A stretch of DNA of 64,000 bases from assembly GCF_036588685.1 (NCBI RefSeq), contig NC_086378.1:23746001-23810000 (forward strand), written 5' to 3'. Made by a program: the position numbers and the translations under genes. The notes below the pieces were generated by a model, which did not search any database, was not told the DNA's origin, and saw only the letters and a program-made list of their open reading frames with translations. This DNA comes from Mytilus trossulus (taxonomy: Eukaryota). This document shows positions 7,778-57,435 of the stretch, piece by piece. Numbering within the stretch: the stretch's first letter is position 1; each line of letters starts with the position of its first letter.

Positions 7778-9037
7778 TTAACAAAAATCAATTTTAATTT
7801 ATATATTTAATTAATTCCATTTACTTGTCAACGGAAGATGATTGTAAACTCTTATACACATCAAGACAAATAAATTATTTATATCTTTCATTATTTTGTC
7901 GTCATGTGTACTTTCGTTTTCCCCTGATGAATGATCAACCACATGACTAGTTAGATAATCTGTAAGATAACAACAATAAACAATGTTAGCTACAATGGGA
8001 ATAGTAAGTTTAAATTGTTAAATAACATTATTCATATAGAAAAAGAGTTGTGGGGTATACATAAATCTGAAAGCAATCAAATGACAAAGATCAACATACA
8101 TTTATAGGTGTCTATACAATTTATGTCCAACCGTAAGTTATATCTTTGTAAATACGTCTTTTTGATCGAGATTGAAATTTCAACTGATATTTCATACTGT
8201 TTATTTTTACACTACTGTTTCAAGTTATGGTGAAGGTTGGCACCTGTTAAAACGTTTTATTTCTCTTCATTTGTTTGCATTTGTCCTAAGTCAGGAGCTT
8301 CTTGTCAAGTGATTGTCGTTTGTTGATGTGGTTTATAAATGTTTCTGCCTTTTTTTAAAAATATAGATTAGACATTGGTTTTCCGGTTTGAATTGTTTTT
8401 CACCAATCATTGTGAGACCCGTAATAGCTTGTAAAGTGTTGAGTAGAATAATTTTAATTCAACATGTTACTCATATATCAGCATGCTTTTATAAAGAAAA
8501 ACCTTAATGTACTATTTATATTTGTTATTTATTTCGTCGTTCTGCTTTTTTGTTATTAATTGTAATTGTATGTTCTTGGAGTACTTATTTGCCAGAATAT
8601 TGATCGCAATGAGGTTATAATTAATGCCATATTTTTTATAGTTTCAGGGACAGGCGGACAAACGAACGGACGCAAAGACCAGAAAACATAATGCCCCTCT
8701 ACTATACTAGGTGGTGTAAATAAAAAGCATACTTCAATTAGGTAAATTTAAAAAGGAGAAGTCAATGGAAATGTACATAAGTCAGCCCATATCAACTACC
8801 GAAATAAACGGAAACAATATCACATGCCTGGCTTGGTATGAGCATTTTCCGATGAAACTTTTGTTTTAAACATGGTTTCCTTGCTTTATTTTTAAATTGT
8901 GTGAGAGATGTTTATATTTTATTGCTCAATTATATTGACACAATTGGATATGTAACCCAAAACACCTTCCAGTTTTAGACCATGGATCGTTTGTGTGTTA
9001 CATCTTCAGTTCGTTCTAAACCATTTTATTTTTTCAG

Positions 9038-10366
9038 GTTTATACTCTGATTCTGTTTTTCATGCTCCCCTTGATGAAGTGTGACCGCTGTCCTGCTCCG
9101 AAACAATGCAGTTGCCAATATAATATAATTTACTGTGATCATTTGAATCTTACTGATGTTCCGGAGTTTACGAAACCAGACAACGAGCATATGACTTGGG
9201 ATATTGAACTGCATAATAACAACATAAAAAGTATTCGGAATGGTGCTTTTCAAAATTTGAAACTTGAAATGCTTCTCATATTTGATAATGAGATTGAGGT
9301 TGTAGAGGATGACGCCTTTAGTGGGAGTGAGGATAGTCTATATGTACTACATCTTTATAATAACAAATTGACTACAGTTCCGTCTGCTGTTGGTAAAATG
9401 AGAAACCTTATGGGTTTAGATGTCCACAACAATCCTATATCTACAATAAGGGAAGATATACTTCAAAATGTTTCAAGCACATTGTCCGGTATTATGTTTG
9501 GTGATATGAAAATGACCTTGTGGCCAAACTCTCTGAACGTTTTGTCAAACTTGGAATCAATAAGGATTCAAAATCTAAACATCACACTAATTCCAGACAA
9601 TGCATTAGATTTTTTTCGCAACTTAAGTAGTTTTGAGATGATTTCAACAGATTTTAGTAACATACCATCTTCTCTTAGTGATCGCTCAATGTTAGAAGAT
9701 ATCAATTTAGAAGATAACCCAATGTTGACGACTGAAAGCTTCAAACCTGAAACATTTAGTAAACTTTCTACTTTAATGCGAATGACAATTATGAATAGTA
9801 GTATAACTATTTTACCAAATATATTTAATAAACTTACTAATTTGTTTATTCTGCAACTAGAGAACAATCCGATAACATCAATTCCAGATCACGTGTTTCC
9901 TCTGAATTTCTCCTCTAACTTTTGGTTTATGACATTAAAGAACACATCTTTGGCCAGTGTTCCAAAGGCTCTATCCAACCTTACTAGTCTCACCCGACTT
10001 GCTTTTATGACAAGCTTAATATCGGAAATTCACGATAACGATTTCAGAAACATGGATAAACTAGAGAGACTGTATTTTACAAACAGCCCGTTACATACTG
10101 TGTCCGAAAATGCTTTTAATGGACTGAAGTCCTTGAAGTATCTTACTCTGGATAATACGCTCCTAACTACCGTACCGAAAGCAATGATGAATCTGCCATC
10201 ACTTTCAGATCTAAGTCTATCAAATACCAAAGTCGTTTGTACATGTTCCAATCTAAGATGGATTAAACAATGGACTAAGCAAAGTGAAGTGGAGATTTAT
10301 GGAAGTTGTATCAACATTAAGATGACGATTGCATTATTTATTTATAAAGAACTGCCCAAGTGTTAA
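9038..10366 (+). CDS. Secreted leucine-rich repeat protein (LRRNT, roughly 13-14 LRRs, LRRCT), main coding exon
   Basis: 434-aa ORF with N-cap CPAPKQCSC..IYCDHLNLTDVP, repeated LxxLxLxxNxI motifs and C-cap VVCTC..LRWI..C..C-stop. Acceptor TTTTATTTTTTCAG ends at 9037 and adds in-frame VYTLILFF, completing a signal-peptide-like segment. AATAAA near 10479. Confidence 0.92.
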   Translation, partial: VYTLILFFMLPLMKCDRCPAPKQCSCQYNIIYCDHLNLTDVPEFTKPDNEHMTWDIELHNNNIKSIRNGAFQNLKLEMLLIFDNEIEVVEDDAFSGSEDSLYVLHLYNNKLTTVPSAVGKMRNLMGLDVHNNPISTIREDILQNVSSTLSGIMFGDMKMTLWPNSLNVLSNLESIRIQNLNITLIPDNALDFFRNLSSFEMISTDFSNIPSSLSDRSMLEDINLEDNPMLTTESFKPETFSKLSTLMRMTIMNSSITILPNIFNKLTNLFILQLENNPITSIPDHVFPLNFSSNFWFMTLKNTSLASVPKALSNLTSLTRLAFMTSLISEIHDNDFRNMDKLERLYFTNSPLHTVSENAFNGLKSLKYLTLDNTLLTTVPKAMMNLPSLSDLSLSNTKVVCTCSNLRWIKQWTKQSEVEIYGSCINIKMTIALFIYKELPKC

Positions 10367-27799: not shown

Positions 27800-28319
27800 A
27801 CATACTGAGTGTGTTCTACTAGGTGTTTATAAAGGGAAAGCACACATAGCGACTGCCACATACAAGTAATATCTAATTGACTGTCAGAGAAGATAAGCAT
27901 AGGCGATTGGACATTCTAGGCAGTTGTTGGAAGTATCAATCATGTCAATTGACATAAAACCAGCAAATACAATAAACGCAAACAAACATCCAAAGTGATT
28001 AAAAATCTGTAGTAAAGAACACACTCAGGCACCAACACTACACTTTTAAAAGATTATTTGTTACATTTCCTTCCTAACTTGTACCAGGTATATTATTCAA
28101 TTACCAACGACCTATGCAACTTTTGGTACCGTACACGCCTTTGTTAGCTTTGTAAGCTTCGTTACTTGATATTATGCTTAAGCAAACAGCATGTCTATAT
28201 ATATAAAAAAAAACAAAAAACATCAAATACCGTTTATATCGTAATGAAATATTGTATTATTAAAAAAAAATCACTTGATTTTATTAGTTTAATAATTTGA
28301 AATAATTTTTCTTTTCCAG

Positions 28320-29488
28320 ATTTGACTAATAGTTCGTCTTTTCTAACTGGTGATATCTCGGAATATGAATATTTAGCAGACATCTTACGATCAATGAACC
28401 TGTCACAGTTTGGTAACGAGAGTGATCATGAATTGTTATACAATTTGATCAAACAAATTCAACAGAAAGTTGATTCAGAACAAGATGCATCTGTTCTAAT
28501 TTACAACTTACTGACATTTGTACCTCCACTCATTTTAGCATTTGGAATTGTTGGAAATATTTTGTCGTTTATTGTTCTCACTAAATTTTCCAAAAGGTTT
28601 CCTAGTTACCATTACCTGTATGTACTGGCATCTTTAGATATGGTTGTGTTATTAACAGGGCTGTTAAGACTATGGGTAAAACAAATAACCGGAAACGACG
28701 TTGCGAGTGAATCTAATTTTCTGTGTCCGCTATTCACATTTTTAGGTTTTTTCAGTAGTGTTGCTAGTGTGTGGATTGTCCTGGCTATATCTATTGATCG
28801 TGCGATTGCAATTAAATATCCTCTGAAGAGATATAAGGAAGATGTCAACAAACGAACAAAACTTATTATTCTGATTATTTTGATAGGAAGTGGATTAGTA
28901 AATATTCATTTCCTTTTTACCATGGGGTTGCAACCAAACAAATCACATGACCTCACATCATCATGTGACCCGCATTTGATGTACCTTAACTTTTATCGAA
29001 CTGTTTGGGCATGGATTGACGCCATAATTTACTCATGGATTCCATTTTGCGTCATTGGTATTACTAATATATTTACTATCATTGGCCTTTTTATCGCACG
29101 AAAAACTAGAAAATCATTAAACAGTAAAGAAGTCAAAGTATCACATCGGGAGCATTACATGACTATCATGGTACTTACCATTTCTATATCCGTCCTTATC
29201 ATGCTTGTTCCAGTCAATACCATAATGATAATGTTGATATTTTGGAAAAACACAGTTGGATCAAACCAAGAATTATATAGTATGCAGGTAGCAAAAACAA
29301 TCGGCGAACTATTAATGTATACAAGTCATTCGGTTAACTTTGTACTTTATTACTGGGCCGGTTCCCAATTCAGACATCAATTTGGGAAGGTATTCTTTCC
29401 AAAGAAAAAAGAAAAAAGAGTTCATAGAATGTCTACTTTTGAACCTACATGTAGTAAATCAATACTATCCATTGATGATGATTTATGA
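28320..29488 (+). CDS. Class A GPCR, FMRFamide / sex-peptide-receptor-like orphan peptide receptor, main exon
   Basis: Seven hydrophobic segments; GN (TM1), LASLD (TM2), DRAIAIKYP (TM3), Cys in TM3 and ECL2, IPF (TM5), SHSVNFVLY..GSQFR (TM7/helix 8); N-terminal sequons NSS, NLS, NES. Acceptor TTTTTCTTTTCCAG ends at 28319, so the TTG 'start' of the ORF track is internal. Confidence 0.93.
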
Positions 29489-32348: not shown

Positions 32349-35300
32349 AAAATCGTGGGTTAAACCTGGTTTAATAGAAACGATAAGTTTCCCGATTTGT
32401 GACAGTTGTTAGTAGTTCTAATATATTAATAGAATTGAGTGAGCATCCCAAACAGACATAATGTTACAATAATTGGAATTCAGCAGCCACACCTGTGTAA
32501 ATATATATCACAGACATAAAACACAACTGACTAAATTATTCAAACAAATGTACAATTAAATCATACAAAGGCGATAATAAAATATAACATATATATTATG
32601 GAAAAAACAGGGACATTAACTCACAATTAAACCATTATTTCAAATGCTGTTAATGATAAAAGGCTTGTCTGCCTTATACGTATACCTCCAAAGTTATGCA
32701 GCAAATACAGCTGTGATCCTTTAACGGACAAGTTTGAACGTTACGTATTCACATTGAAGTTATTTCAAAGTTAAAATGTGTAAAAACAAAAACGGAACGC
32801 TGCTCGCATGTACAAAGCAAGAGTGGGCTAAATAAAATCTATGAATTGTCGGTACTGAGTTAAATGTGGATTATATACTATACAGTGGTTGTGTTAAAAG
32901 TCATCATTCACAAATAGAAGTCTTGTAAAATATGTCTGAAAGATCTGCATAAAAAAATCAAGTATTAAGATGACAGAATCAATTATTTTTATCATATCGC
33001 TATGACAAGTAAGAGAACAGTTTGCTTGAATACAAATTTCAATCGTTTTCGTATATTCTTTTTTATAAGTTAGTTTTATGAAAGTGCTATGATTTGAGAT
33101 TAAAAAATAGCTTTCTGTTGAATAGTTTTGTCTCATACAAAGGTCGTTCACTAACGCTTTCATCCCTTCTATAGCTACCTGTTGTTAGTGTATATATTTA
33201 GACTTTATTCATTATCACAATTAATAACAATTTATTATCAAATGTTAACTGATATTGTTTTATTTAAATAAACAACTGTGTGTGTGCTTTGCTACTTGAA
33301 ACATAAATCATATGTAAACTATTTATTGTCACAGATCAATCTAGATATTTTTGCAGGAAAAAGACAAAATTTGTTTCCATATTCTGCATTTAAATTTTCT
33401 TTTCAAATACTTAAATTTTGACTTTAACCTTTTTTTATGACAAAAAGCGCGTTAGACGTACAAAATTATGAACCCAGATTTGTTGATGAGAATACTTTAA
33501 TTGTGTAACGCTTCATTTCAGAAGGTTTTATCTCGCGTTTTTTGTGTTATAATAGTGCTATAAAAACAAACTTTTTGACTATTTACACTATGTCTCTGCT
33601 TTATTTGACAATGATAACTGAATTTTGCGTTTATAAAAATCTGCTTCATTAAGAAAAAATCTGTCATTTTCATTACGTATAAGAAAGAAATTCTAATCGT
33701 GAACTAATTTGAAAAGTGATTAAGCTAGTAACGGTATAAATTTACTGTTTGCAAAAGATAAATCATTCGAAATATTTTTATTTTTTTTATCCCAGACAAG
33801 GATTACCTTAGCCGTTTTTGGCACAACTTTTTTGGAATTGGGGATCCTCGATGCTCTTCAACTTTATACTTGTTTGGCTTTCCTACTTTTTTGATACGAG
33901 CGTCACTGATGAGTCTTTCGTAGACAACACGCGCGTCTGGCGTAAGATATTATAAGCTTGGTGCTATTTGACAAATGCTAAATTTAAAAAGGCCGAATAC
34001 ATCTAACACAAGAACAACAACTGTCTATTACAGCCATTTTCTTTACTACAAAATTTTAAGTTAAACCTGTTTTTAAGCAAGCTGAACCGCTCACTTGAAG
34101 GAGGATACTCATGTGGGACCAACCCAAACAGACAAAATAGGCAAACATGTCACAAATTGTCAACATATTGTTTTAATATTAATCGCTATGGAACAAATAA
34201 TAAACGTCTTTTATTTCGATTATGTACGTAAATTGAAGTTCAATGTTAAAGTATATACGTCAATTATATCAGACGTAAGAAAACAAGAAAAAAGAATTAC
34301 TTGAAACTGTGAATTATAAAAAATTATAGGAAACTTAGATTGTAATTTATTTCACAAATATTTTATCATTTATTTCGTTTAATAAAAAAATAATGTTTGG
34401 ACAATAACACATAGTTTTCTGTCTAATATTTTTTCTTATATTGAGGTCTTTTACTTACGCTTTTATCGCTAGTACATGCTGTTGATTTCTTTTCAGACAC
34501 AATTCATTATCACAATAAAATACAATAAATTATCAAATATTAACCGAAAGCTATTTCATTGAAATACCATCTTTTCTTCTATTTGAAACATAAATCAAAT
34601 TTGTATATGTCAATTATAATTCTAAACATTATAAGTGAAATATTATCAAAGTTTTATTTAATAATGTTCATCCTTCAATACTGTTAGACATTTCTCCATT
34701 ATGTATTTCTATTTTCTTATTCAATCCTATTCAAATTTTACCTTTAAAGTTTTGTTTAATTCTTTATTCGAACGACGCTAGCTTTTTCTTTGTACACGAC
34801 ACTCGTGCTTGGCTTAAAAAAAAATGTCTGCTTGGTATCGTTGATGAGATTATTTAATATCTTCATCTCCACTTTTCAAAAGATTATTATGATAAAATCG
34901 GACTTGTTGACTATTCATATAACATCATGTCTCTGGCTTTTTTTGCAAATGGTAATTAAATGTTGCTTGTATCCAAGTCTTTTTTCAAAAACCTATGACA
35001 TTTTTACAAAAAGTCCGTTGTTTTTGTGTTTACAAATTATTAATACAATGGCTTTAATAAGACTTTCATACAAGTGAGAGGGTCAACTGGCTTGAAAAAA
35101 TGCTTAATTCACTATTTTCTATATGAGGAAATGATTGTACCAATTATGGAATTGGACAAATGTGTCCATTTGTTTGATGTGTTTGTGCTTTTAATTACTT
35201 CTTAAAGAAACAAAATACAAAGAATGAACATACCAATACCATCTATAGTATAAATGAATAATACTGTTTAGGACGAATATCACGAATATATATAACTTGT

Positions 35301-37779
35301 AATATTAACAAAACCCTAATATGGTATTCAAATGGAGAACAAATAAAACATTTTTTTCAACATCGATCCATCTAATGTTCTGTTCATATTAGTAAATTCA
35401 AGTAAAATGTTAAAGTATACGTCAGTTACATATACATCAGACATATCAGACGTCATAAAAAAACCTTTAACTAACAACTGTGAAACATCAAAGTTCAAAT
35501 GTATCATACAGCTATAAACATGATAAAAAAACAAAAAAGACAGAAAAAGATTGTAATAAGACAAGTCTTGAAACAAAAAAAAAAGAGAACGGATGAATTT
35601 TGTTTACAAAATTTAGAATTTTTTCAAAACTAAGACTTTTCTACCTCAGGCATAGATTACCTTAGCTGTATTTGGCAATTTTTTATAGGAATTTTCGTCC
35701 TTAATGCTCTTCAAATTCGTTCTTTATTTGGCCTTACAACTTTGTTTGGGTTCGAGCTTCACTGTTGAGTCTTTTGTAGGCGCAACACGCGTCTGGCGTT
35801 TATACAAAATTTAGTCTTGGTATCTATGATGAGGTTATTTGCAGTAACAGAAACAGAAAAATAAAAACACTGAAAACAAATATGCAAACACAGCAGTATG
35901 ATTTGTATTTATTTTTATCATTTGAAATCATTTGTAGTTTGTATTAGGTAAACCAGTTTAAATGCATACAATGCAAGATACAGTTACGTAAAAATCTTTC
36001 ACGACGTCGAACTGGAAAATATGCATTTTCGACTGAATTGTATCATACAAACATTTCAAACACGAGGTCATGGAATTATCTTTTTTAAAAGTACAGCTCT
36101 TTGTAAAATGCAGGCAGAGGGTGATTCATGACACTTTCAAAAACACATGAAATTTTATCACAGTAGTAGGATTAACCCCTGAAAAAAAAATTTGGAACTT
36201 TTTTTCCAAAAATTGTACTGGTTGCCATGGTAAGCAGGGCAGTACTTTTACCTAAAATGGAGGGCTAAATATGTCAAAAATCAACAAATTTCAAATGTCA
36301 ATATATTTTATTAGGATTGACAATAAAAATAAAACAAAATATGTTTTGAGCAAACCAATTCATACATTTTCATTTTATAATATCAACATTTGAGTAATCG
36401 ATATCAATAAAATGAAATAATAGATGTGAAAATGTGAAAAAAATGCAAATTTGCTATTTCTCAAAAACTGTGATTTTTTAGGCTTAAGATCGTTTAATTT
36501 CTTCAGTTACCAGATTCAATTACTTAATTGATGCTGTGCATGATACTATCCAAGGTATACTTGTTTAATAAAAACTTTTAAAATTTTGGGATCTGCCCCC
36601 ATTTTTTGTTGCAATGGCAACAAAAATCTCTTATTTTTGAAAATCTCAAAAAATGTGAATTTCACTACTTTTCCAAGAAAACCTATATTTTGTCACAAAA
36701 TAAAAGTATAAAAAAATAAGAAGTGTGCCTAATAATGATTTAAATATAGATATCACAGAAAGCTCTTAAAAAATGTGATATATTACGAATTTCTGTTGCC
36801 GTGGCAACAAAAAACTCATATTTGAAATAATTGTAAAAAAGTGAAATTCCCTTCTATTTTCAGTAAGATTAAATTTTGTCATTAGATAATATTATGCAAT
36901 TGGTGGTGTTCATAATAATGATTTAAATTTATTTGAAATTTTTTAGAAAAAATAATTTTAGAACCATTTCAGTTTCCATGGCAACAAAATCTATGTTATC
37001 AAATGTTGAAAACACATGAATAACACTACTTTTCCTGGAAATTTTTTACTTTGTCACAAAATCATAACATGAAATTGGTGTTGTGCCTTAAATTGATTAA
37101 AGTGTAAGACATATATGAACCCACTACAAAAGGTAGAATATAAAACCTGTTTTTGTTGTCATGGTAACAAAAACCTTAAATTTTGAAAATGTAAATGAAA
37201 TGAATTAAACTGCTATTTCAAGTCACTAATATTTAAAACTATGCTTAATGACAATCAATATAATAAACAACAACGGTTTCAAAATGATTTTTGTATCCTA
37301 CTGATACTTTTAGAGCTTCTGCTCTTCACAAAAGAACCCCTAAGGGTGACTGGGGAATAGAAATATGGTCACTTGGTCTACTCCCGAACTACTCTTACCA
37401 TGCTTACAAGCAATTATAATTTTCTATATTTACATTTGATTTCATGGAATGGTCATTTGGCAGGGGTGGATCCAGCCATTTTAAAAAGGGGTTCCTAACC
37501 CAGGACAAAGGGGTGGGGTGTCTAATTACATGTCCCCATTCAAATGCATTGATCGTCAAAAAAAGGGGGCTATATCATAAATTTCATGCATGTCTGTCAT
37601 TTTCTGGTTTTAGTTTGCCTCAACCAAATGATATGAAACATATACATAATTGTTATTACCACAAAACAGAGATCAAGTTTGAATTTAGTTAGCGTCACTT
37701 TAACTGTTCCCGAGATATTGGGATATCTTTGTTTGTTTGATACTTTAAAAATTGTTAAAACCGAGAACCAGATCAGTTT

Positions 37780-37901
37780 CATAGGCGGATCCTGGGTGGC
37801 CCGGGCCCCCTTTTGTGGGAAAAATTTGGTTGATTATATAGGGAATCACTGAAGTTTGACTGGAGCGTCCCCCCTTACAAAAAGTTATGGATCCGCCACT
37901 G
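37780..37901. mobile_element. GC-rich MITE with 5-bp TSD
   Basis: CATAGGCGGATCC ... GGATCCGCCACTG with TSD AGTTT/AGTTT. Confidence 0.8.
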
Positions 37902-37963
37902 AGTTTAGAACTGTATAGTTTACCTTAAATGACCTGATTAAGTGAAGAAATTTCTAAAATTGA

Positions 37964-39077
37964 CTATTTGATCTTGAAGGAAAAACTTTCTTGACAACGA
38001 TTTGGACTAACTTGAAAACTGGGCCAATAATCAAAACCTAAGTACATGTTTAGATTCAGCACATCAAAGAACCCCAAGAATTCAATTTTTGTTGAAATCA
38101 AACAAATTTTAATTTTGGACCCCGATTTGGACCAATTTGAAAACCGGGCCAATAATAAAAAAAATAAGTACATGTTTAGATTCAGCATATCAAAGAACCC
38201 CAATTATTCAATTATTTGACTTAGTTTAAATTTGGACCCTCTGGACCTTAATGTAGACCAATTTGAAAACGGGACCAAAACATTAAGAATCTACATACAC
38301 ATTTAGACTCGGCATATTAAAGAACCCCAATTATTCAATTTTTGATGAAATCAAACAAAGTTTAATTTTTGAACCCTTTGTGCCCCTTTTTCCTAAACTG
38401 TTGGGACCAAAACTCCCTAAATCCATCCCAATCTACCTGTTATGATCATAAATCTTTTGTTTAAATTTCATGAATTTCTATTTAAGTTATGGTGCTTAAA
38501 CCAAGAAAAATGCTTATTTGGCCCCTTTTTTGGCCCCTAATTCCTAAATTGTTGGAACTGCAACTCCCAAAATCAATCCTAACCTTCCTTTTGTGTTCAT
38601 TAACCTTGTGTTTAAATTTCATTGATTTCCATTTACTTATACTAAAGTTAAGGTGCAAAAGCTAAGGAAAATGCTTATTTGGGCCCTTTTTGGTCCCTAA
38701 TTCCTAATTTGTTGGGACTTCAACTCCCAAAATCAATTCCAACCTTCTTTTTTGTGTTCATAAACCTTGTGACTAAATTTCATTGATTTCCATTCACTTA
38801 TACTAAAGCTAGTGTGCGAAAACCATGAAAATGCTTACTTGGGCCTTTTTATTTAGGCCTAATTCCTAAACTGTTAGGACCAAAACTCCAAAAATCAATC
38901 TCAACCATCTTTTTAAGGTCGTAAACCCTGTGTTAAAGGTCATAGATTTCTATATAATTATACTAAAGTTATAGTGCGAAAACCAAATGTCTTTGTGAAG
39001 AAGACGACGCCGGACGACGACGCCAACGTTATACCAATATACGACCAAACAATTTCAATATTTGCGGTCGTATAAAA
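37964..39077 (-). mobile_element. HINE / DINE-1-like element with two internal tandem arrays
   Basis: Terminal hairpin TATACGACC...GGTCGTATA-AAA and GACGAC microsatellite; ~127-bp unit x3 (38052, 38178, 38305) and ~160-bp unit x4 (38390, 38541, 38701, 38863). Confidence 0.75.
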
Positions 39078-39190
39078 CGGGGGGATATTCTAGTTTTCAG
39101 ACAATGCTTTGAACAGTTATCAAACTTTGGTGACGGGTGTATATCTTTTAAAAATCATAACCTCCCTTTAGTTTTCATGCATTTGTGATA

Positions 39191-40034
39191 CTAGAACACA
39201 CCCGTGAAATCGTGGGGAAATATACTGACTGGGGAATTTCAGGAGAGGTATCAAAACTGTCAAAAGGTACTTAGGGACTGGGAACATTTTTTTCCCTCCC
39301 CCTATTTTTCAAATACCGGTTTTTATACCTTCTGTTTTTCTGTACTCTTTGAACATTTTATAGATAACCATTGGAATTTATAGTAAATTATAACAAATAC
39401 AGTTATTCATAGTATTCATAGTAAATGTATGTAAGCATACAGAAATATATCCGCAGTGATAGCCGTTGATAGTAAACCATAGGCGGATCTTAGGGGGGCC
39501 TGGGGGCCCTGTTTCCAATTTCGTTGAAAGAAAATTGTTGCTTTTATGGGGAATCACTGAAGCATAAGAGGAGCGCCCCTCCCTCTTAGGTCAGTCAGCC
39601 CCCCTCCCTTATGAAAAGTTCTGGATCCGACACTGTTAACTAATTGATAGTGAATAGCAAATATTATTCATTTTTGTTTCCCTCCTAAATTAACCCAAAT
39701 TGAAACACATTAAGCAAAGATGATACATGCTAGAACTCAAAATGATAGCAAAAAGCAAATTTATATACTTTATTCATAGTCTTTGTATGTCAAAGAACAG
39801 AAAAACTCAAACTGGAAGTCTAATCTGGCTTAAAGTTTTGTCCAATGACGGGAAAATATTCGGAAGCTTTCTTTTTCGTTTTTATCCAAAATTACCCAAA
39901 CTGAATGATCATAAGAATGGATGACAAATGCGACTATAAATGTTACCTTTAGGACACAGAGGCATGGTGATTAATTTATTGTGGAAGGAGGGGAAGCAAC
40001 ACACAAAATGAGGTATTTCGTTTAGTAGTATAGA
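39191..40034 (-). mobile_element. Non-autonomous Helitron
   Basis: The minus strand begins TCTATACTACTAAAC and ends with hairpin CCCACGATTTCACGGG then TGTGTTCTAG. Inserted between A and T with no TSD. Confidence 0.8.
39478..39635. mobile_element. Second copy of the GC-rich 5-bp-TSD MITE, nested in the Helitron
   Basis: CATAGGCGGATC ... GGATCCGACACTG, shared core GGGAATCACTGAAG, flanks TAAAC/TTAAC. Confidence 0.75.
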
Positions 40035-42254
40035 TGACACTGAGAAGTTATTATTCTTAGAAAAAGCGACGGGCGTAACATGCGCTGTTTATTTTCATTT
40101 TATTGAATTACACTGTTATGATCAGTTAAGAGTACATTTGAACTTTGCAGTATATCTGAGGTAGTTAATGATTATTATGTACACCTTAGCTGTGCATGAT
40201 CCTGATCTATGAAAGATTCAAACAAAAACGACTCAACATCCATTCCTCCCCCAAAATGCAACAGGGTATATATTTAAATTTTGACAGTCATGACAGTACT
40301 GAGAGTGAAACAAAGCAAAGCATGCAGTTATATTCCCCCTAGAAAACTGAACACTATTAACAGAATTATATGTAATTTTTTACATAAACTATATGATTAA
40401 AATTTGATTGACTGGTATGGGTGATATGTGTTACCATGGCAACTGTTGAAATAATACTTAACGAGTGTAGTTTAGAGCTTTTATATGCTTCAATGCATGT
40501 CTTTTCATAAAGGTTTGGAAACAGTTGAGAACATTGAATTCCCTACACTGCAGAATTCAACAAATAATAACTCTGTTTCCAAGGAGAAAATACGTTAACA
40601 TGGTGATAAAATATAAGAGAGCACCACGCAATGTTTTTTTTTTGGTCAGGTAGTATTCAAAATTGTAACTATAATGCTAGCTATGATTTACATATTTTTA
40701 ATTTTTGGAAAAACACATGAGAAAATTTGACAATTCCACAATTTCATGATTCCGAAAAAAATTAATGTTTTTTTATTATTTTTTAACAAAAAATCTAAAA
40801 GTCGGGGTTGAACTGCAATATTAACTAAGCTCTGAAGCTAAACCAAAGCTATATAGATGAATGATTCATGGATATGAAATTTCTGAAAATAAAATTGATT
40901 GTATTCATAATATAATCATTATTCTATTCATAACCAGGCTTTCCGACCAAAAGTTATCTTTTCAAGAATCTACATGTATGATTTTTTTTAAATAAACCTA
41001 CCCCCCCTTTTCCCTAACCTTCGGTTCTAATCCCAATGTTTCATTATATATTACATATGTTGAACCTTCTGAACAGAACAGACAAGACTGTGAGTGAAGC
41101 AAAGCACGCAGTCATATTCCAACTTGATAATAAACAGCGTCTATATATATATATGTATTTTTTTACATAAATTTCTATTGATACATCTTAAAACAGATGT
41201 TGCTATGGGTAATGTGCATTTACATGGAAGCTTTTGAAGTCAGCAACTATTAACGATGGTAATTTGAAGTAAGCTTATGCTTAAATGTATTTTTTTAATC
41301 AGTTATGAAACAATTCAGTACATTTAAGCTCTAAAACTGCAATATTTTGCAAATAATAAGTCCGTTTCCAAGGAAAAAATCGGTTGCTATGGTGATAAAA
41401 CTAAAGAAAGTCCCAAGCTTTTTTCTATTTAATTTGGTAAAGTAGTATCCCAACTTCATCACTATAGTGCTAAATATGCTATACACAGTTGCTCTTTTCT
41501 GAAAAACACCATAGAAAATTTGATTATTTCGCCAAAATCCAAATTTCAGAAAAGTTGAAAATATGCATTTTTTGGCAAAATTTTTCAAAAAATTTACAAA
41601 TTCAATTTACATGCAATCTTAACTAAAATGATGCTTCAACAAAGTTGTATCAATGTTACATATGAAAATTAATTAAAAATGCTTGATTCTATTCCTAATC
41701 AGGCTCTGAATTGTAGTGATTTAGCTGATTTTTGAAAGATTTTACTATGTCTAACAACCAAAAAATAGAGTGTCCATTACCATGGCAACCACTCGTTTTA
41801 TCCCACTCATATTTATTTTTTGAGTAGTATTTAGTTACTGCTTCTTCTAGGCCATTTATAGATAAAATCTGAAACCCTCATAAATCACATGTATATGGCA
41901 CCCTGCCTGGTTCTTACAAAGAGCTGTACTTAATGGCTTGTGTATGTATGAATATTATATTTTTCTAATTGTTATGAACAAAACACAGATATTTTTTATT
42001 AGGTATATATAAGTAACAAAATTTCGAAAGAATGTGATAAAAATGGATAATTTCTAAAAAAAACGTTTCTCAAATTCAAAGACAAATTCTGTAGATAAGA
42101 TGATTTTACTATAACCCACTTACATTTATCTTTCTAATCTAAAATGTAAATTATGTTTTTCTTAAGAATAGAAATGACCAAGAAATAGAAAAGTTCAGTT
42201 TATGTCTAAAATTTCGTCCACATTTATGTCTGAAAGTATCACATGAAGGTATTG

Positions 42255-43038
42255 TTTTTATACGCCCGTCAAAATTTTGACGGGACGTATTATGGTAGGC
42301 AAATGTCCGGTGTCCGCCCGTCTGTCCGTCTGTCCGGCGTAAACATGTCGCACCGTAATTTAAGAACAACTTATTCAAATTTCATGAAACTTTACATAAT
42401 TGTTTCTTATGATGGTCAAATGATGTGTATACATTTTGGGGAAAATAAGATTAAAACTTTTTGAGTTACGGCACTTTGTAACTAAAACAGGGGTGTTTTT
42501 TTTCACATGTCGCACCGTATCTCATAAACGATTCTTGATTATGGCTTAAAACTTTAAACACTTCTTAGTCATATTAATCTTAATATCTGTATACTTTTTG
42601 GTGATGATTCAAAATTTTAATTTTGAGTTATTGAGTATTTTGTAAAAAAGGGGCAGGTTTTTTTTACATGTCGCACCATATCTCTAAAACAATTTATGAT
42701 TATGGCTTAAAACTTTAAATATTTCTTAGTTATATTAATCTAAATATCTGTATACTTTTTGGTGATGATTCAAAATTTTATTTTTGAGTTATTGAGTATT
42801 TTGTAAAAAAGGGGGAGGTTTTTTTTACATGTCGCACCATATCTCAAAAACAATTTATGATTATTGCTTAAAACTTTACACATGTCTTTGTTATATTAAT
42901 CTTAAGATCTGTATACTTTTTGGTGATGATTATAACAATATATGGTTATTGCTTAAAACTTTCTCAGAAACTATTTATGATTGTTGCATAAAACTTCCAC
43001 ACACGTCGGGCGTATCATGCGCTCATGGCGCAGCTGTT
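42255..43038 (+). mobile_element. HINE / DINE-1-like element with 161-bp tandem core
   Basis: 5' T-run plus hairpin ATACGCCCGTCAAAA/TTTTGACGGGACGTAT; (GTCY)n microsatellite; ACATGTCGCACC at 42343, 42505, 42666, 42827; 3' subTIR CGGGCGTAT (43007-43015) and hairpin TGCGC-TCATG-GCGCA. Confidence 0.85.
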
Positions 43039-43620: not shown

Positions 43621-43880
43621 GTTATCAAAGGTACCAGGATTACAATTAAGTACGCCGAACGCGCGTTTCGTCTACATAAGACTCATCAGTGACGCTCATA
43701 TCAAAATATTTATAAAGCCAAACAAGAACAAAGTTGAAGAGCATTGAGGATCCAGATTTCCAAAAAGCTGAATACGGCTAATGTAATCTATACCTGGGAT
43801 AAGAAAATCCTTAGTTTTTTCATAAAATTCAAAAATTTTTAAACAGGAAATTTATAAAAATGACCACATTATTGATATGA
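43621..43880 (-). mobile_element. Retrozyme family A copy with near-intact hammerhead (43652-43695)
   Basis: Minus strand GCGUCA-CUGAUGA-GUCUUAUGUAGAC-GAAA-CGCGCG-UU-CGGCGU: intact core, GUU triplet, first stem I pair mismatched. Confidence 0.85.
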
Positions 43881-56000: not shown

Positions 56001-57435
56001 ATAGTCTTTGTTAAATGGACACTTTAAAAAAATGTACAGTATTTACCTTTTTTTAAACCAAAGAAATACTTTGCATGTATAAAGTTTAATCCTTTCAGTG
56101 CTACAATGAAAATTTCACACTACATTTCATTGTATATAAGAACCATCCCCGGAAGTAAACAGCCCAATTTTTACACTGTTATTTACTGGTTACCTAGTAT
56201 TTAACCTTAACGTTCCATAATATTTTATAAGACCATCAAATAAATAAAGAATGATGCTTTCAGACACCCAAAATACATGTTTATGACTCAGAAAATTTAA
56301 CTGCATTGAAATGCAGGGCTAATTTTCTACAACTGTCAAATTCAATGGACTATTTTTATAGGCTTACTTTCGTACAACCGGATGTGATGTACCATGATTT
56401 GGTGGTATTACACCTGCAGCGATTTAGAAAGATAAGTTTATAACTATTTATAATCCATACATATTATTTAGTTTAGATAATTTTTTTTTGAGATTTAACA
56501 AATTCATTGATAGTTGTTTAATCTGTTTGTTTTTTTAGTTTAAAATGTTTATATTTGATTTGATTTTGCATACTTCTAAAAGCATGTGATACTTTCGACA
56601 ATGTTGAAGTAACATGTCTATTGTTAAACATGTAAAGCGCTTAGAGTTATTGTATTGTTTTAATAGCAGTTAATATGCACGTTACAAATACCATGNNNNN
56701 NNNNNNNNNNNNNNNNNNNNNNNNNNNNNNNNNNNNNNNNNNNNNNNNNNNNNNNNNNNNNNNNNNNNNNNNNNNNNNNNNNNNNNNNNNNNNNNNNNNN
56801 NNNNNNNNNNNNNNNNNNNNNNNNNNNNNNNNNNNNNNNNNNNNNNNNNNNNNNNNNNNNNNNNNNNNNNNNNNNNNNNNNNNNNNNNNNNNNNNNNNNN
56901 NNNNNNAGTGTTTCACCGAGGAAAACGCAAGTACCAAGCACAAGTCAGGAACATGACAGTTGTTATTCATTCGTTTGATGTGTTTCAGCTTTTGCGTTTG
57001 CCATTTGGTAAGAACTTCCTGTTTAGAATTTTCCTCGGAGTAAGTTTTTTGTTATTTTACTTTCTACATGTACACATAAACAGGAAATCTCACCTTAAAT
57101 ACTGTTTTGAGTATGTTAAGTTTAAAGCTATTTATGGGAATAATTTAAAATCGACATTTACATTAGGCGTCATCTGAAGTGGACTGTAAATGTCATTGTT
57201 CATTCCAAACAAAAAACCTTTCAAGTGAAACGTACTAATCTTTTGAAGTGATTATCAAGTTCATTGTAGTCTGAGGCACGGGGTGCGGGATTTTCTCGCT
57301 GCGTTTAAGACGCATTTGTGACCTTCGGTTGATATCTGCTCTTGGTCGGGTTGTTGTCCATTTGACATATTACTCATTTCCATTCTCAATTTTATTGCTT
57401 ATCGTTTTGTAACAACTTTAGACGAATATTGCTGC
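53100..57435 (+). repeat. Diverged local duplication (~53100-53975 vs ~56470-57435)
   Basis: Shared collinear blocks TTATATTTGATTTG.TTTTGCAT, AAATACTGTTT, TCGACATTTA, GAAGTG.ACTGT.AATGT, AAAAACCTTT..GAA.CGTA.TAATC and GCTTAT..TTTT..ACAA.TT. Confidence 0.7.
56696..56906. other. Assembly gap (N run)
   Basis: 211 consecutive N. Confidence 1.

Follow-up and report, generated by a model that had tools for sequence, protein, structure and literature searches.

X-box-like palindromes in both arms of a probable non-autonomous transposon of Mytilus trossulus

Described systems closest to the locus

The non-autonomous inverted-repeat elements CERP2 and CELE2 of Caenorhabditis carry arm motifs that are bound by a host transcription factor, HIM-17, and their co-option as promoters has been shown (PMC9757741). 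For the mussel element described here both binding and co-option are hypothetical. HIM-17 has THAP domains related to a transposase, and its target motifs form a non-palindromic pair (PMC9757741); RFX, by contrast, is an ancient regulator of the host. Arms that are long, internally repetitive and structurally unstable, and whose tandem units hold conserved sites, are known from Galileo and similar foldback-like elements, which also form chimeric copies; those of the mussel element recall them in part. The arm sites of Galileo are transposase sites (PMC3573991). Galileo is a P-superfamily element whose duplications measure 7 bp and whose two arms are nearly identical (PMC3573991), whereas in the mussel element the candidate duplication measures 2 bp (or 4 bp) and the arms are only faintly alike. 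Non-autonomous elements of the IS630/Tc1/mariner superfamily, including its long-TIR clades, share with the mussel element the flanking TA, the inverted ends and the subterminal inverted repeats of several hundred bp (bioRxiv 10.1101/656579; PMC5490172). The long-TIR elements of aphids were reported to be free of palindromic motifs, which the mussel element carries; the latter has no transposase and owes its 5.8-kb size to nested repeats. Among DDE superfamilies, IS630/Tc1/mariner is the richest in the majority of molluscs surveyed (PMC10294476).

All animals are reported to have RFX genes, whose products bind an imperfect inverted repeat; X-boxes are promoter elements, located mostly within 500 bp of the start site (PMC5838959). 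The X-box of ciliary promoters, known from the DAF-19 targets of C. elegans (PMC3245922), is a 14-bp imperfect palindrome; its tolerated variants, its occasional 15-bp form and the presence of several sites per locus are all common to the element. Unlike ciliary X-boxes, the sites of the element occupy the arms of a transposon, with as many as five in one arm, and are remote from any gene start found. A literature search for such RFX-type sites in transposon arms found no publication.

Extent, arms and interior of the element

Positions 36094-41926 of the window (the whole 64-kb stretch of DNA analysed) form a non-coding element of about 5.8 kb with inverted ends and TA flanking each end (Table 1), in agreement with the 5.8-kb TIR element of the original prediction (36091..41929). 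The inverted ends (36089-36117 and 41903-41931) match over 29 nt with 90% identity. In this single copy the junction letters read alike as a TA duplication with CAG ends (36094-41926) or as a GTAC duplication with AG/CT ends, and two paralog pieces align past the right end, to 41929 and 41931. No direct repeat of 7-8 bp, the target-site duplication of Galileo and the P superfamily, is present at the junctions. A Kolobok-type TTAA duplication was rejected: TTAA stands right at the right end and TTAAAA at the left, and an extra change is needed to make them fit. The ends, with their TA and CAG/CTG termini, appear Tc1/mariner-like, and the superfamily assignment is tentative. The element, whose inverted ends are short and whose long arms have diverged, is probably a non-autonomous cut-and-paste transposon, and the copy in the window is a decaying relic.

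Table 1. Features of the element, in window coordinates
Feature	Position	Strand	Remarks
Left TA, candidate target-site duplication	36092..36093	.	From sequence; alternative GTAC 36091-36094
Left terminal inverted repeat, CAG start	36094..36117	+	Match reaches out to 36089
Left arm, non-coding, CpG-poor	36094..37337	+	From contigs and depth
X-box-like palindrome	36221..36234	.	127 bp inside left end; all compared contigs read C at 36234
Four diverged tandem units, one palindrome each	36563..37292	+	Spacing 187, 177, 183 bp
X-box-like palindrome, unit 1	36608..36621	.	514 bp from left end
X-box-like palindrome, unit 2	36795..36808	.	701 bp from left end; holds one of the arm's only five CpGs
X-box-like palindrome, unit 3	36972..36985	.	
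X-box-like palindrome, unit 4	37155..37168	.	Compared contigs read C at 37165
Interior, a patchwork of unrelated high-copy repeats, without transposase remnant	37338..40199	.	Depth 5e3-2e6 vs 4-80 in flank bins
Nested MITE-like repeat, 9-nt inverted ends	37784..37897	.	Relative 70% alike at 39482-39631
Nested satellite-like arrays, 126-bp and 160/161-bp units	37998..38986	.	Followed by microsatellite-like run and palindrome near 39040-39075
Right arm, non-coding, CpG-poor	40200..41926	-	Inner border approximate; common to many diverged copies
Diverged ~790-bp direct duplication in right arm	40268..41699	+	40268-40911 vs 41055-41699, 67%
X-box-like palindrome	40430..40443	.	Partner position in duplicate (near 41221) decayed
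Weak X-box-like site	40594..40607	.	Duplicate of 41383
15-bp X-box-like site, one half intact	41199..41213	.	Mirror partner of 36795
X-box-like site	41383..41396	.	530 bp inside right end; mirror partner of 36608
X-box-like palindrome	41776..41789	.	137 bp inside right end; mirror partner of 36221
Right terminal inverted repeat, CTG end	41903..41926	-	Match reaches out to 41931
Right TA, candidate target-site duplication	41927..41928	.	From sequence

The longest reading frames in the element have 90-91 aa, and no transposase remains were found in it by six-frame reading. None of its 37 frames of at least 45 aa reached the Pfam cut-off (three weak matches stayed below), no Pfam family was found in 64 frames elsewhere in the window, and Rfam gave no match at gathering score in 35000-43000. 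No protein with an RFX-type domain was seen in the element or the window. The search for an autonomous partner by end pattern returned one match from metagenomes, one and none from viral sequences and six from prokaryote genomes, none of them real: all eight loci are chance matches without arm homology. X-box doublets in viral contigs numbered zero in each of two scans, and PF02257 in prokaryote genomes 0 of 2.

The element is multi-copy and dispersed. Left-arm contigs are about 98% alike in all four runs, with a depth several-fold above the flank in three of them (350 in X1, 272-286 in X2 and 43 in X3, compared with flank contigs at 33-43, about 52 and 6.6, respectively), contig depth not being equal to true copy number. 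In X8 the left arm had a depth of only 65-74, versus 44-70 in the flank. Right-arm pieces of other copies are 83-90% alike among the matches listed, and continue into different sequence.

Beyond their short ends the arms are faint mirror homologs (z 4.1 vs 100 dinucleotide shuffles, falling to z 2.7 once the sites are removed; z 0.4 in the same-orientation control). The mirror alignment of the arms, which are about 55% alike with gaps and are both repetitive, scores 67, compared with at most 30.5 for 22 unrelated stretches. Palindromic sites are found 127, 514 and 701 bp from the left end and 137, 530 and about 713 bp from the right end, and site letters agree at 30 of 37 aligned positions versus 389 of 593 elsewhere. 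We infer that a single long inverted repeat gave rise to both arms. The span could instead consist of the left and right ends of two related elements facing each other by accident, an unlikely arrangement in our judgment, which would leave the motif result unaffected. In X1 the right arm is covered 5 to 60 times as deeply as the left, which would suit two such elements, although a right arm common to many sister families would also account for it; the arms also differ in the likeness among copies (83-90% among the right-arm matches listed, 98% in the left). The 2-bp duplication is weak proof of a single insertion, no empty-site joint was present among the 15 listed of 1980 joints, and chimeric copies are known in Galileo (PMC3573991). 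The matching ends in the right orientation, the identical flanking letters and the mirror homology between the arms speak for one element.

Nested high-copy repeats make up about 2.9 kb of the 5.8-kb element, about half of it. The nested 126/161-bp arrays, microsatellite and end palindrome recall HINE, a non-autonomous Helentron of bivalves (PMC7492417). This likeness is limited to these parts and is one of appearance; the outer element is not HINE-like, and HINE carries no X-boxes.

Palindromic sites and their fit to the RFX X-box

All eight palindromes listed in the original prediction are present at the positions given there. Allowing up to two mismatches to the 14-bp palindrome, seven matches were found in the 64-kb window, all of them between 36221 and 41789 in the arms of the element. 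Shuffles of the window gave 0.53 matches on average and four at most (0 of 100 reached seven), which rules out a chance origin of the cluster. With up to three mismatches there were 11 matches, ten inside the element span (the one at 37394 in a nested repeat) and one outside (55604). For three X-box patterns, 4 of 4, 6 of 7 and 9 of 20 strand-hits fall inside the element. A role of the palindrome as a hairpin was rejected, as there is no loop and, by inspection, only one pair among nine sites is changed on both sides.

The unit spacings predicted for the left arm were recovered by repeat analysis; in the right arm, for which periodicity had also been claimed, no 180-bp period is present. Pairwise identity among the four left-arm units is 82% in the palindrome versus 56% in the rest of the unit (p 0.0019 with the 14 columns fixed in advance; p 0.087 when compared with the best-scoring 14-column window in alignments whose columns were shuffled). 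As had been predicted, the palindrome has changed less than the remaining unit; equal conservation of motif and unit, named in the original prediction as part of a refutation, was not observed. It is not the sole best-kept block, a second, non-X-box block around unit column 124 being conserved to a similar degree (84.5%). The suggested relation of unit length to nucleosome repeat length did not hold up, since unrelated tandem units in the window measure 126, 160/161, 161 and 210 bp. A 10-bp dinucleotide signal gave weak values only, none of them clear, and nucleosome phasing of the units is supported neither by this signal nor by the unit lengths.

The consensus of the element palindromes is the full 14-bp X-box, and the identification made in the original prediction stands. 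The site at 37155, with the C of the contigs at 37165, equals the validated xbx-2/xbx-4 X-box on the other strand, and the 15-bp variant in the element also occurs among the validated X-boxes in PMC3245922. A degenerate consensus was derived from the validated nematode X-boxes in Table 1 of that paper. Without any break it fits six of nine sites as read in the family and five of nine in the window copy; the others have one break. In a tolerance test against this nematode consensus, with nine sites that are not independent (40594 and 41383 are duplicates) and were chosen partly by consensus likeness, two of them read as in other copies, 3 of the 17 substitutions from the perfect palindrome break the consensus, whereas 9.8 are expected under uniform mutation (p 0.0002), 7.7 under a contig-derived spectrum (p 0.012) and 6.1 under a strong AT bias (p 0.076). 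When all sites are read as in the window copy, the test becomes weaker, and 4 of 19 substitutions are breaks (p 0.0004, 0.02 and 0.12, respectively).

By a rival reading that we hold to be unlikely, a conventional transposase would use the palindromes as plain secondary binding sites, and their X-box likeness would be coincidental. Convergence on subterminal tandem repeats that hold secondary transposase sites is known, and tandem repeats at transposon ends are often interpreted in this way (PMC3573991); the second conserved block of the units would suit such sites, and the strongly AT-biased model leaves the tolerance test non-significant (p 0.08-0.12). The test is significant under two of the three mutation models, and both the full 14-bp consensus and the one family-read site that is identical to a validated X-box make a coincidence rather improbable. 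The palindrome and the terminal inverted repeat have, moreover, no sequence in common. Inner repeats of IR/DR-type elements resemble the terminal repeat.

Two of the five left-arm sites carry changes in the window copy that have no counterpart in other copies. Among the differences from multi-copy left-arm contigs (40 of 849 rows listed), 2 of 17 hit sites, which occupy 5.7% of the span, so that about one is expected and power is low. As these two sites are decayed in the window copy and intact in other copies, selection has likely acted on the mobile lineage and not on a local host enhancer. The mirror-homologous arms, the mirror spacing of sites, the RFX-like tolerance and the restoration of two sites by other copies are new in this analysis.

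Candidate readers of the palindromes

The original prediction had left a choice between recruitment of host RFX and an X-box-like transposase site. The choice stands; tolerance and mirror retention tilt it towards a reader of RFX type. We prefer the host protein, with about an even chance of being right: RFX of the mussel would bind both arms and aid mobilisation of the element. Bound to the palindromes, it would help to leave the two ends accessible to a transposase provided in trans, which probably reads only the outer ~25 bp. Over many cycles of transposition, selection would have retained the palindromes in each arm independently, presumably because both ends profit from a dimeric host factor. 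That RFX might act on the element at a particular time in germ cells is a guess based on what RFX does in other animals.

The autonomous partner might itself encode a winged-helix domain of RFX type, captured onto its transposase or onto a cargo protein. Such a domain would explain the RFX-like tolerance and the sites in two arms equally well, the palindromes then being self-recognition sites of genuine X-box specificity. We regard this as unlikely, given that the TA/CAG ends suggest Tc1/mariner, whose transposases have two helix-turn-helix motifs (PMC5490172), that the 7-bp duplications of P-type elements such as Galileo are absent, and that neither the element nor the window contains such a protein.

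The sites may have served once as an RFX-driven promoter or enhancer of the transposase gene in an autonomous parent and merely have been inherited. X-boxes are indeed promoter elements (PMC5838959), yet one side would suffice for this purpose and no coding remnant marks the position of a gene, which makes such an inheritance very unlikely. The survival of sites in both strongly diverged arms points to a function of the ends, in access or pairing, more than to a promoter on one side.

The presence of ten X-box-like sites within 5.8 kb, together with the established co-option of MITE motifs in nematodes (PMC9757741), could suggest that the host has taken over the window copy as a clustered RFX enhancer. 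Such an enhancer role of this copy was not supported, with two of five left-arm sites changed relative to other copies, and we hold it to be highly improbable. The 2 of 17 differences within sites count against it, at low power. No gene start was found within several kb of the element, where short or unannotated exons could escape, and the nearest gene seen, a GPCR, ends 6.6 kb away with its start on the far side; the 64 other frames of the window have no Pfam family.

A single decayed copy is by itself of modest significance. Eukaryotic cut-and-paste transposons are known to recruit few host DNA-binding factors through their ends. It is conceivable, though we lean against it, that RFX, the regulator of cilia and sperm in animals, is a host cofactor recruited by X-box arrays in both arms of DNA transposons from several unrelated superfamilies. 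These would thereby enter germ-cell chromatin and spread ready-made clusters of RFX sites through invertebrate genomes. If the reader is an RFX domain of the transposase, it would represent an undescribed transposase architecture that rivals a host regulator. If RFX of the host is recruited, the mobility of the transposon would be tied to the programme of ciliated and sperm-forming cells, X-box scans of invertebrate genomes would be swamped by repeats, and transposons would be a source of new ciliary regulatory sites.

Palindromes and their conservation

The palindrome, a 14-bp X-box-like word of the kind recognised by the animal regulator RFX, is a real feature of the element, and all sites quoted in the original prediction were found. 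Seven matches with at most two mismatches occur in the 64 kb, all seven within the element, against a chance expectation of 0.53; none of 100 shuffles got to seven. In the four diverged tandem units of the left arm, pairwise identity is 82% over the 14 palindrome columns and 56% over the 174 others. With the columns fixed beforehand p is 0.0019; it is 0.087 when the comparison is with the best window obtained after shuffling columns. The palindrome had been called the best-conserved part of these units; a second block near unit column 124 is equally kept (84.5%). This block, odd-centred and itself palindromic, is present in its exact form twice in the left arm and is a candidate site of the transposase or of a second factor. 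The spacing of about 180 bp, earlier taken as nucleosome-like, is unremarkable, as unrelated units here span 126-210 bp.

The bases at 36234 and 37165 are C in other copies, both closer to the perfect palindrome, and the sites take 2 of 17 left-arm differences while covering 5.7% (among the differences listed, 40 of 849 rows). For these two reasons the sites appear to have been maintained over a long time while the lineage was mobile, yet to be unprotected in the present copy.

A degenerate consensus was derived from the validated X-boxes of Table 1 in PMC3245922, with a few rare letters omitted. With two sites read as in other copies, 3 of 17 substitutions break it, where three mutation models predict 9.8, 7.7 and 6.1 breaks (p 0.0002, 0.012 and 0.076); with the window's own letters 4 of 19 do so (p 0.0004, 0.02 and 0.12). 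Given that some sites depend on one another and that likeness partly guided their choice, this tolerance lends moderate support to an RFX-type reader.

Ends, copies and surroundings

The element ends in inverted repeats of 29 nt, 90% alike. TA adjoins CAG at 36094 and CTG at 41926; in this single copy an alternative GTAC duplication with AG/CT ends gives an identical reading. The ends fit Tc1/mariner as described in passages of bioRxiv 10.1101/656579, PMC5490172 and PMC10294476, making the element a candidate member. It fails the duplication length given for Galileo in a passage of PMC3573991.

Contigs from 4 of the 24 listed runs, each run labelled with a different organism, were compared over 35201-42700. 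Two paralog pieces align on to 41929 and 41931, which hints at a preferred palindromic target. No contig piece of these runs bridges the entire element, and no empty-site joint was found among the joints listed (15 of 1980). In run X1 one unique flank contig stops at 36118 and another begins exactly at 41932; the two copies may share a wider target sequence, or an empty allele may have a different junction.

Contigs covering the left arm are about 98% alike. Their depth, which is not true copy number, is 350 in X1, 272-286 in X2 and 43 in X3, with flanks at 33-43, about 52 and 6.6; in X8 it is merely 65-74 against 44-70. Three of the four runs would thus contain a subfamily that is small and young. 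Left-arm contigs of X2, X3 and X8 extend to 37366-37367, beyond the high-copy repeat start at 37338, so that this junction is common to other copies. The right arm is common to many more copies (X1 depth 1875-22013), which are also more diverged, the pieces listed being 83-90% alike. None of the element's 37 frames reached the Pfam cut-off, and an Rfam search of it gave no matches. The interior arrays resemble those of bivalve HINE elements, as far as these are described in a portion of PMC7492417.

CpG observed/expected is 0.22 in the left arm and 0.39 in the right, both below all 45 comparison bins (minimum 0.43; window 0.82), which suggests past methylation or its avoidance. Of the five CpGs in the left arm, one lies in the middle of the 36795 site. 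Some sites are bound by RFX1 only if such a central CpG is methylated.

Elsewhere in the window, the GPCR frame (28385-29485) matches a Mytilus trossulus protein at 100% identity. The remaining named protein matches are to Mytilus, with five proteins at E ≤1e-40 among 4212 candidates, which marks the window as mussel DNA. Only two long frames, LRR and GPCR, carry Pfam families; the 64 other window frames of at least 72 aa carry none.

Features of the window and of the element
Feature	Coordinates	Remark
LRR protein	9020-10366	single long exon
FMRFamide-receptor-like GPCR	28301-29488	single long exon
Very high-copy repeat, inverted pair	35634-35724 / 43724-43809	brackets element at about 8 kb
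Left arm	36094-37337	
Second block of left units	36685-36700, 36875-36885, 37046-37062	
Interior	37338 to about 40200	mosaic made up of MITE-like pieces and of 126-bp and 160/161-bp arrays, in very high copy
Right arm	40200-41926	
Second HINE-like element	42240-43000	immediately right of element; GTCY-type microsatellite, 161-bp units
Assembly gap	56696-56906	Ns

Mirror arms and the proposed reader of the sites

The two arms are, judged by alignment, remote mirror homologs. Over 710 bp inward of the short ends the mirror score is 67, against -1 ± 17 for shuffles (z 4.1; z 2.7 without the sites; a same-orientation control gives z 0.4), while 22 unrelated stretches score no more than 30.5; a separate local alignment hardly exceeds its block shuffles (109 against a maximum of 102). 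The distances of sites from the element's ends are 127, 514 and 701 bp on the left side and 137, 530 and about 713 bp on the right side. The right arm contains a duplication, copies 67% alike, in which the pair 40594/41383 is retained in both; the site at 40430 is intact and its partner decayed, with a 15-bp site 22 bp away. Comparison of 40410-40443 with 41199-41234 gives the appearance of site turnover, the 15-bp site being X-box-like. That each arm retained its sites independently points to a function at the ends more than to a one-sided promoter, which is unlikely.

Sequence, conservation, symmetry, repetition and absence of coding are observed features. The inferred mechanism is that of a non-autonomous cut-and-paste transposon: a transposase acting in trans would recognise the outermost 25 bp or so, and a dimeric RFX-type domain would bind the palindromes. 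The original prediction, which is partly supported, had proposed either recruitment of RFX or an X-box-like transposase site; weight has shifted from the transposase toward host RFX, partly through the tolerance test and the mirror homology. End-pattern scans of metagenome, viral and prokaryote genomes found no autonomous partner with matching ends, and for that reason two other readings keep some probability: an RFX domain of the element's own, which is improbable, and ordinary secondary transposase sites, such as a passage of PMC3573991 describes in Galileo, which are slightly less probable again. Since every animal is reported to have RFX genes (PMC5838959, in part), a host RFX protein is the simplest source of the reader, with about an even chance of being the right one.

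No description of RFX sites in DNA transposons was found among the titles and passages that the literature searches covered, and no match to the palindrome string described such transposon arms, by title. In one RFX-matching paper, as far as its excerpt goes, RFX concerns gonad chromatin and not transposon ends. The best guess at a likeness is CERP2/CELE2 with HIM-17 (in a portion of PMC9757741), where host-factor motifs lie in the arms of a non-autonomous element, as may be the case here.
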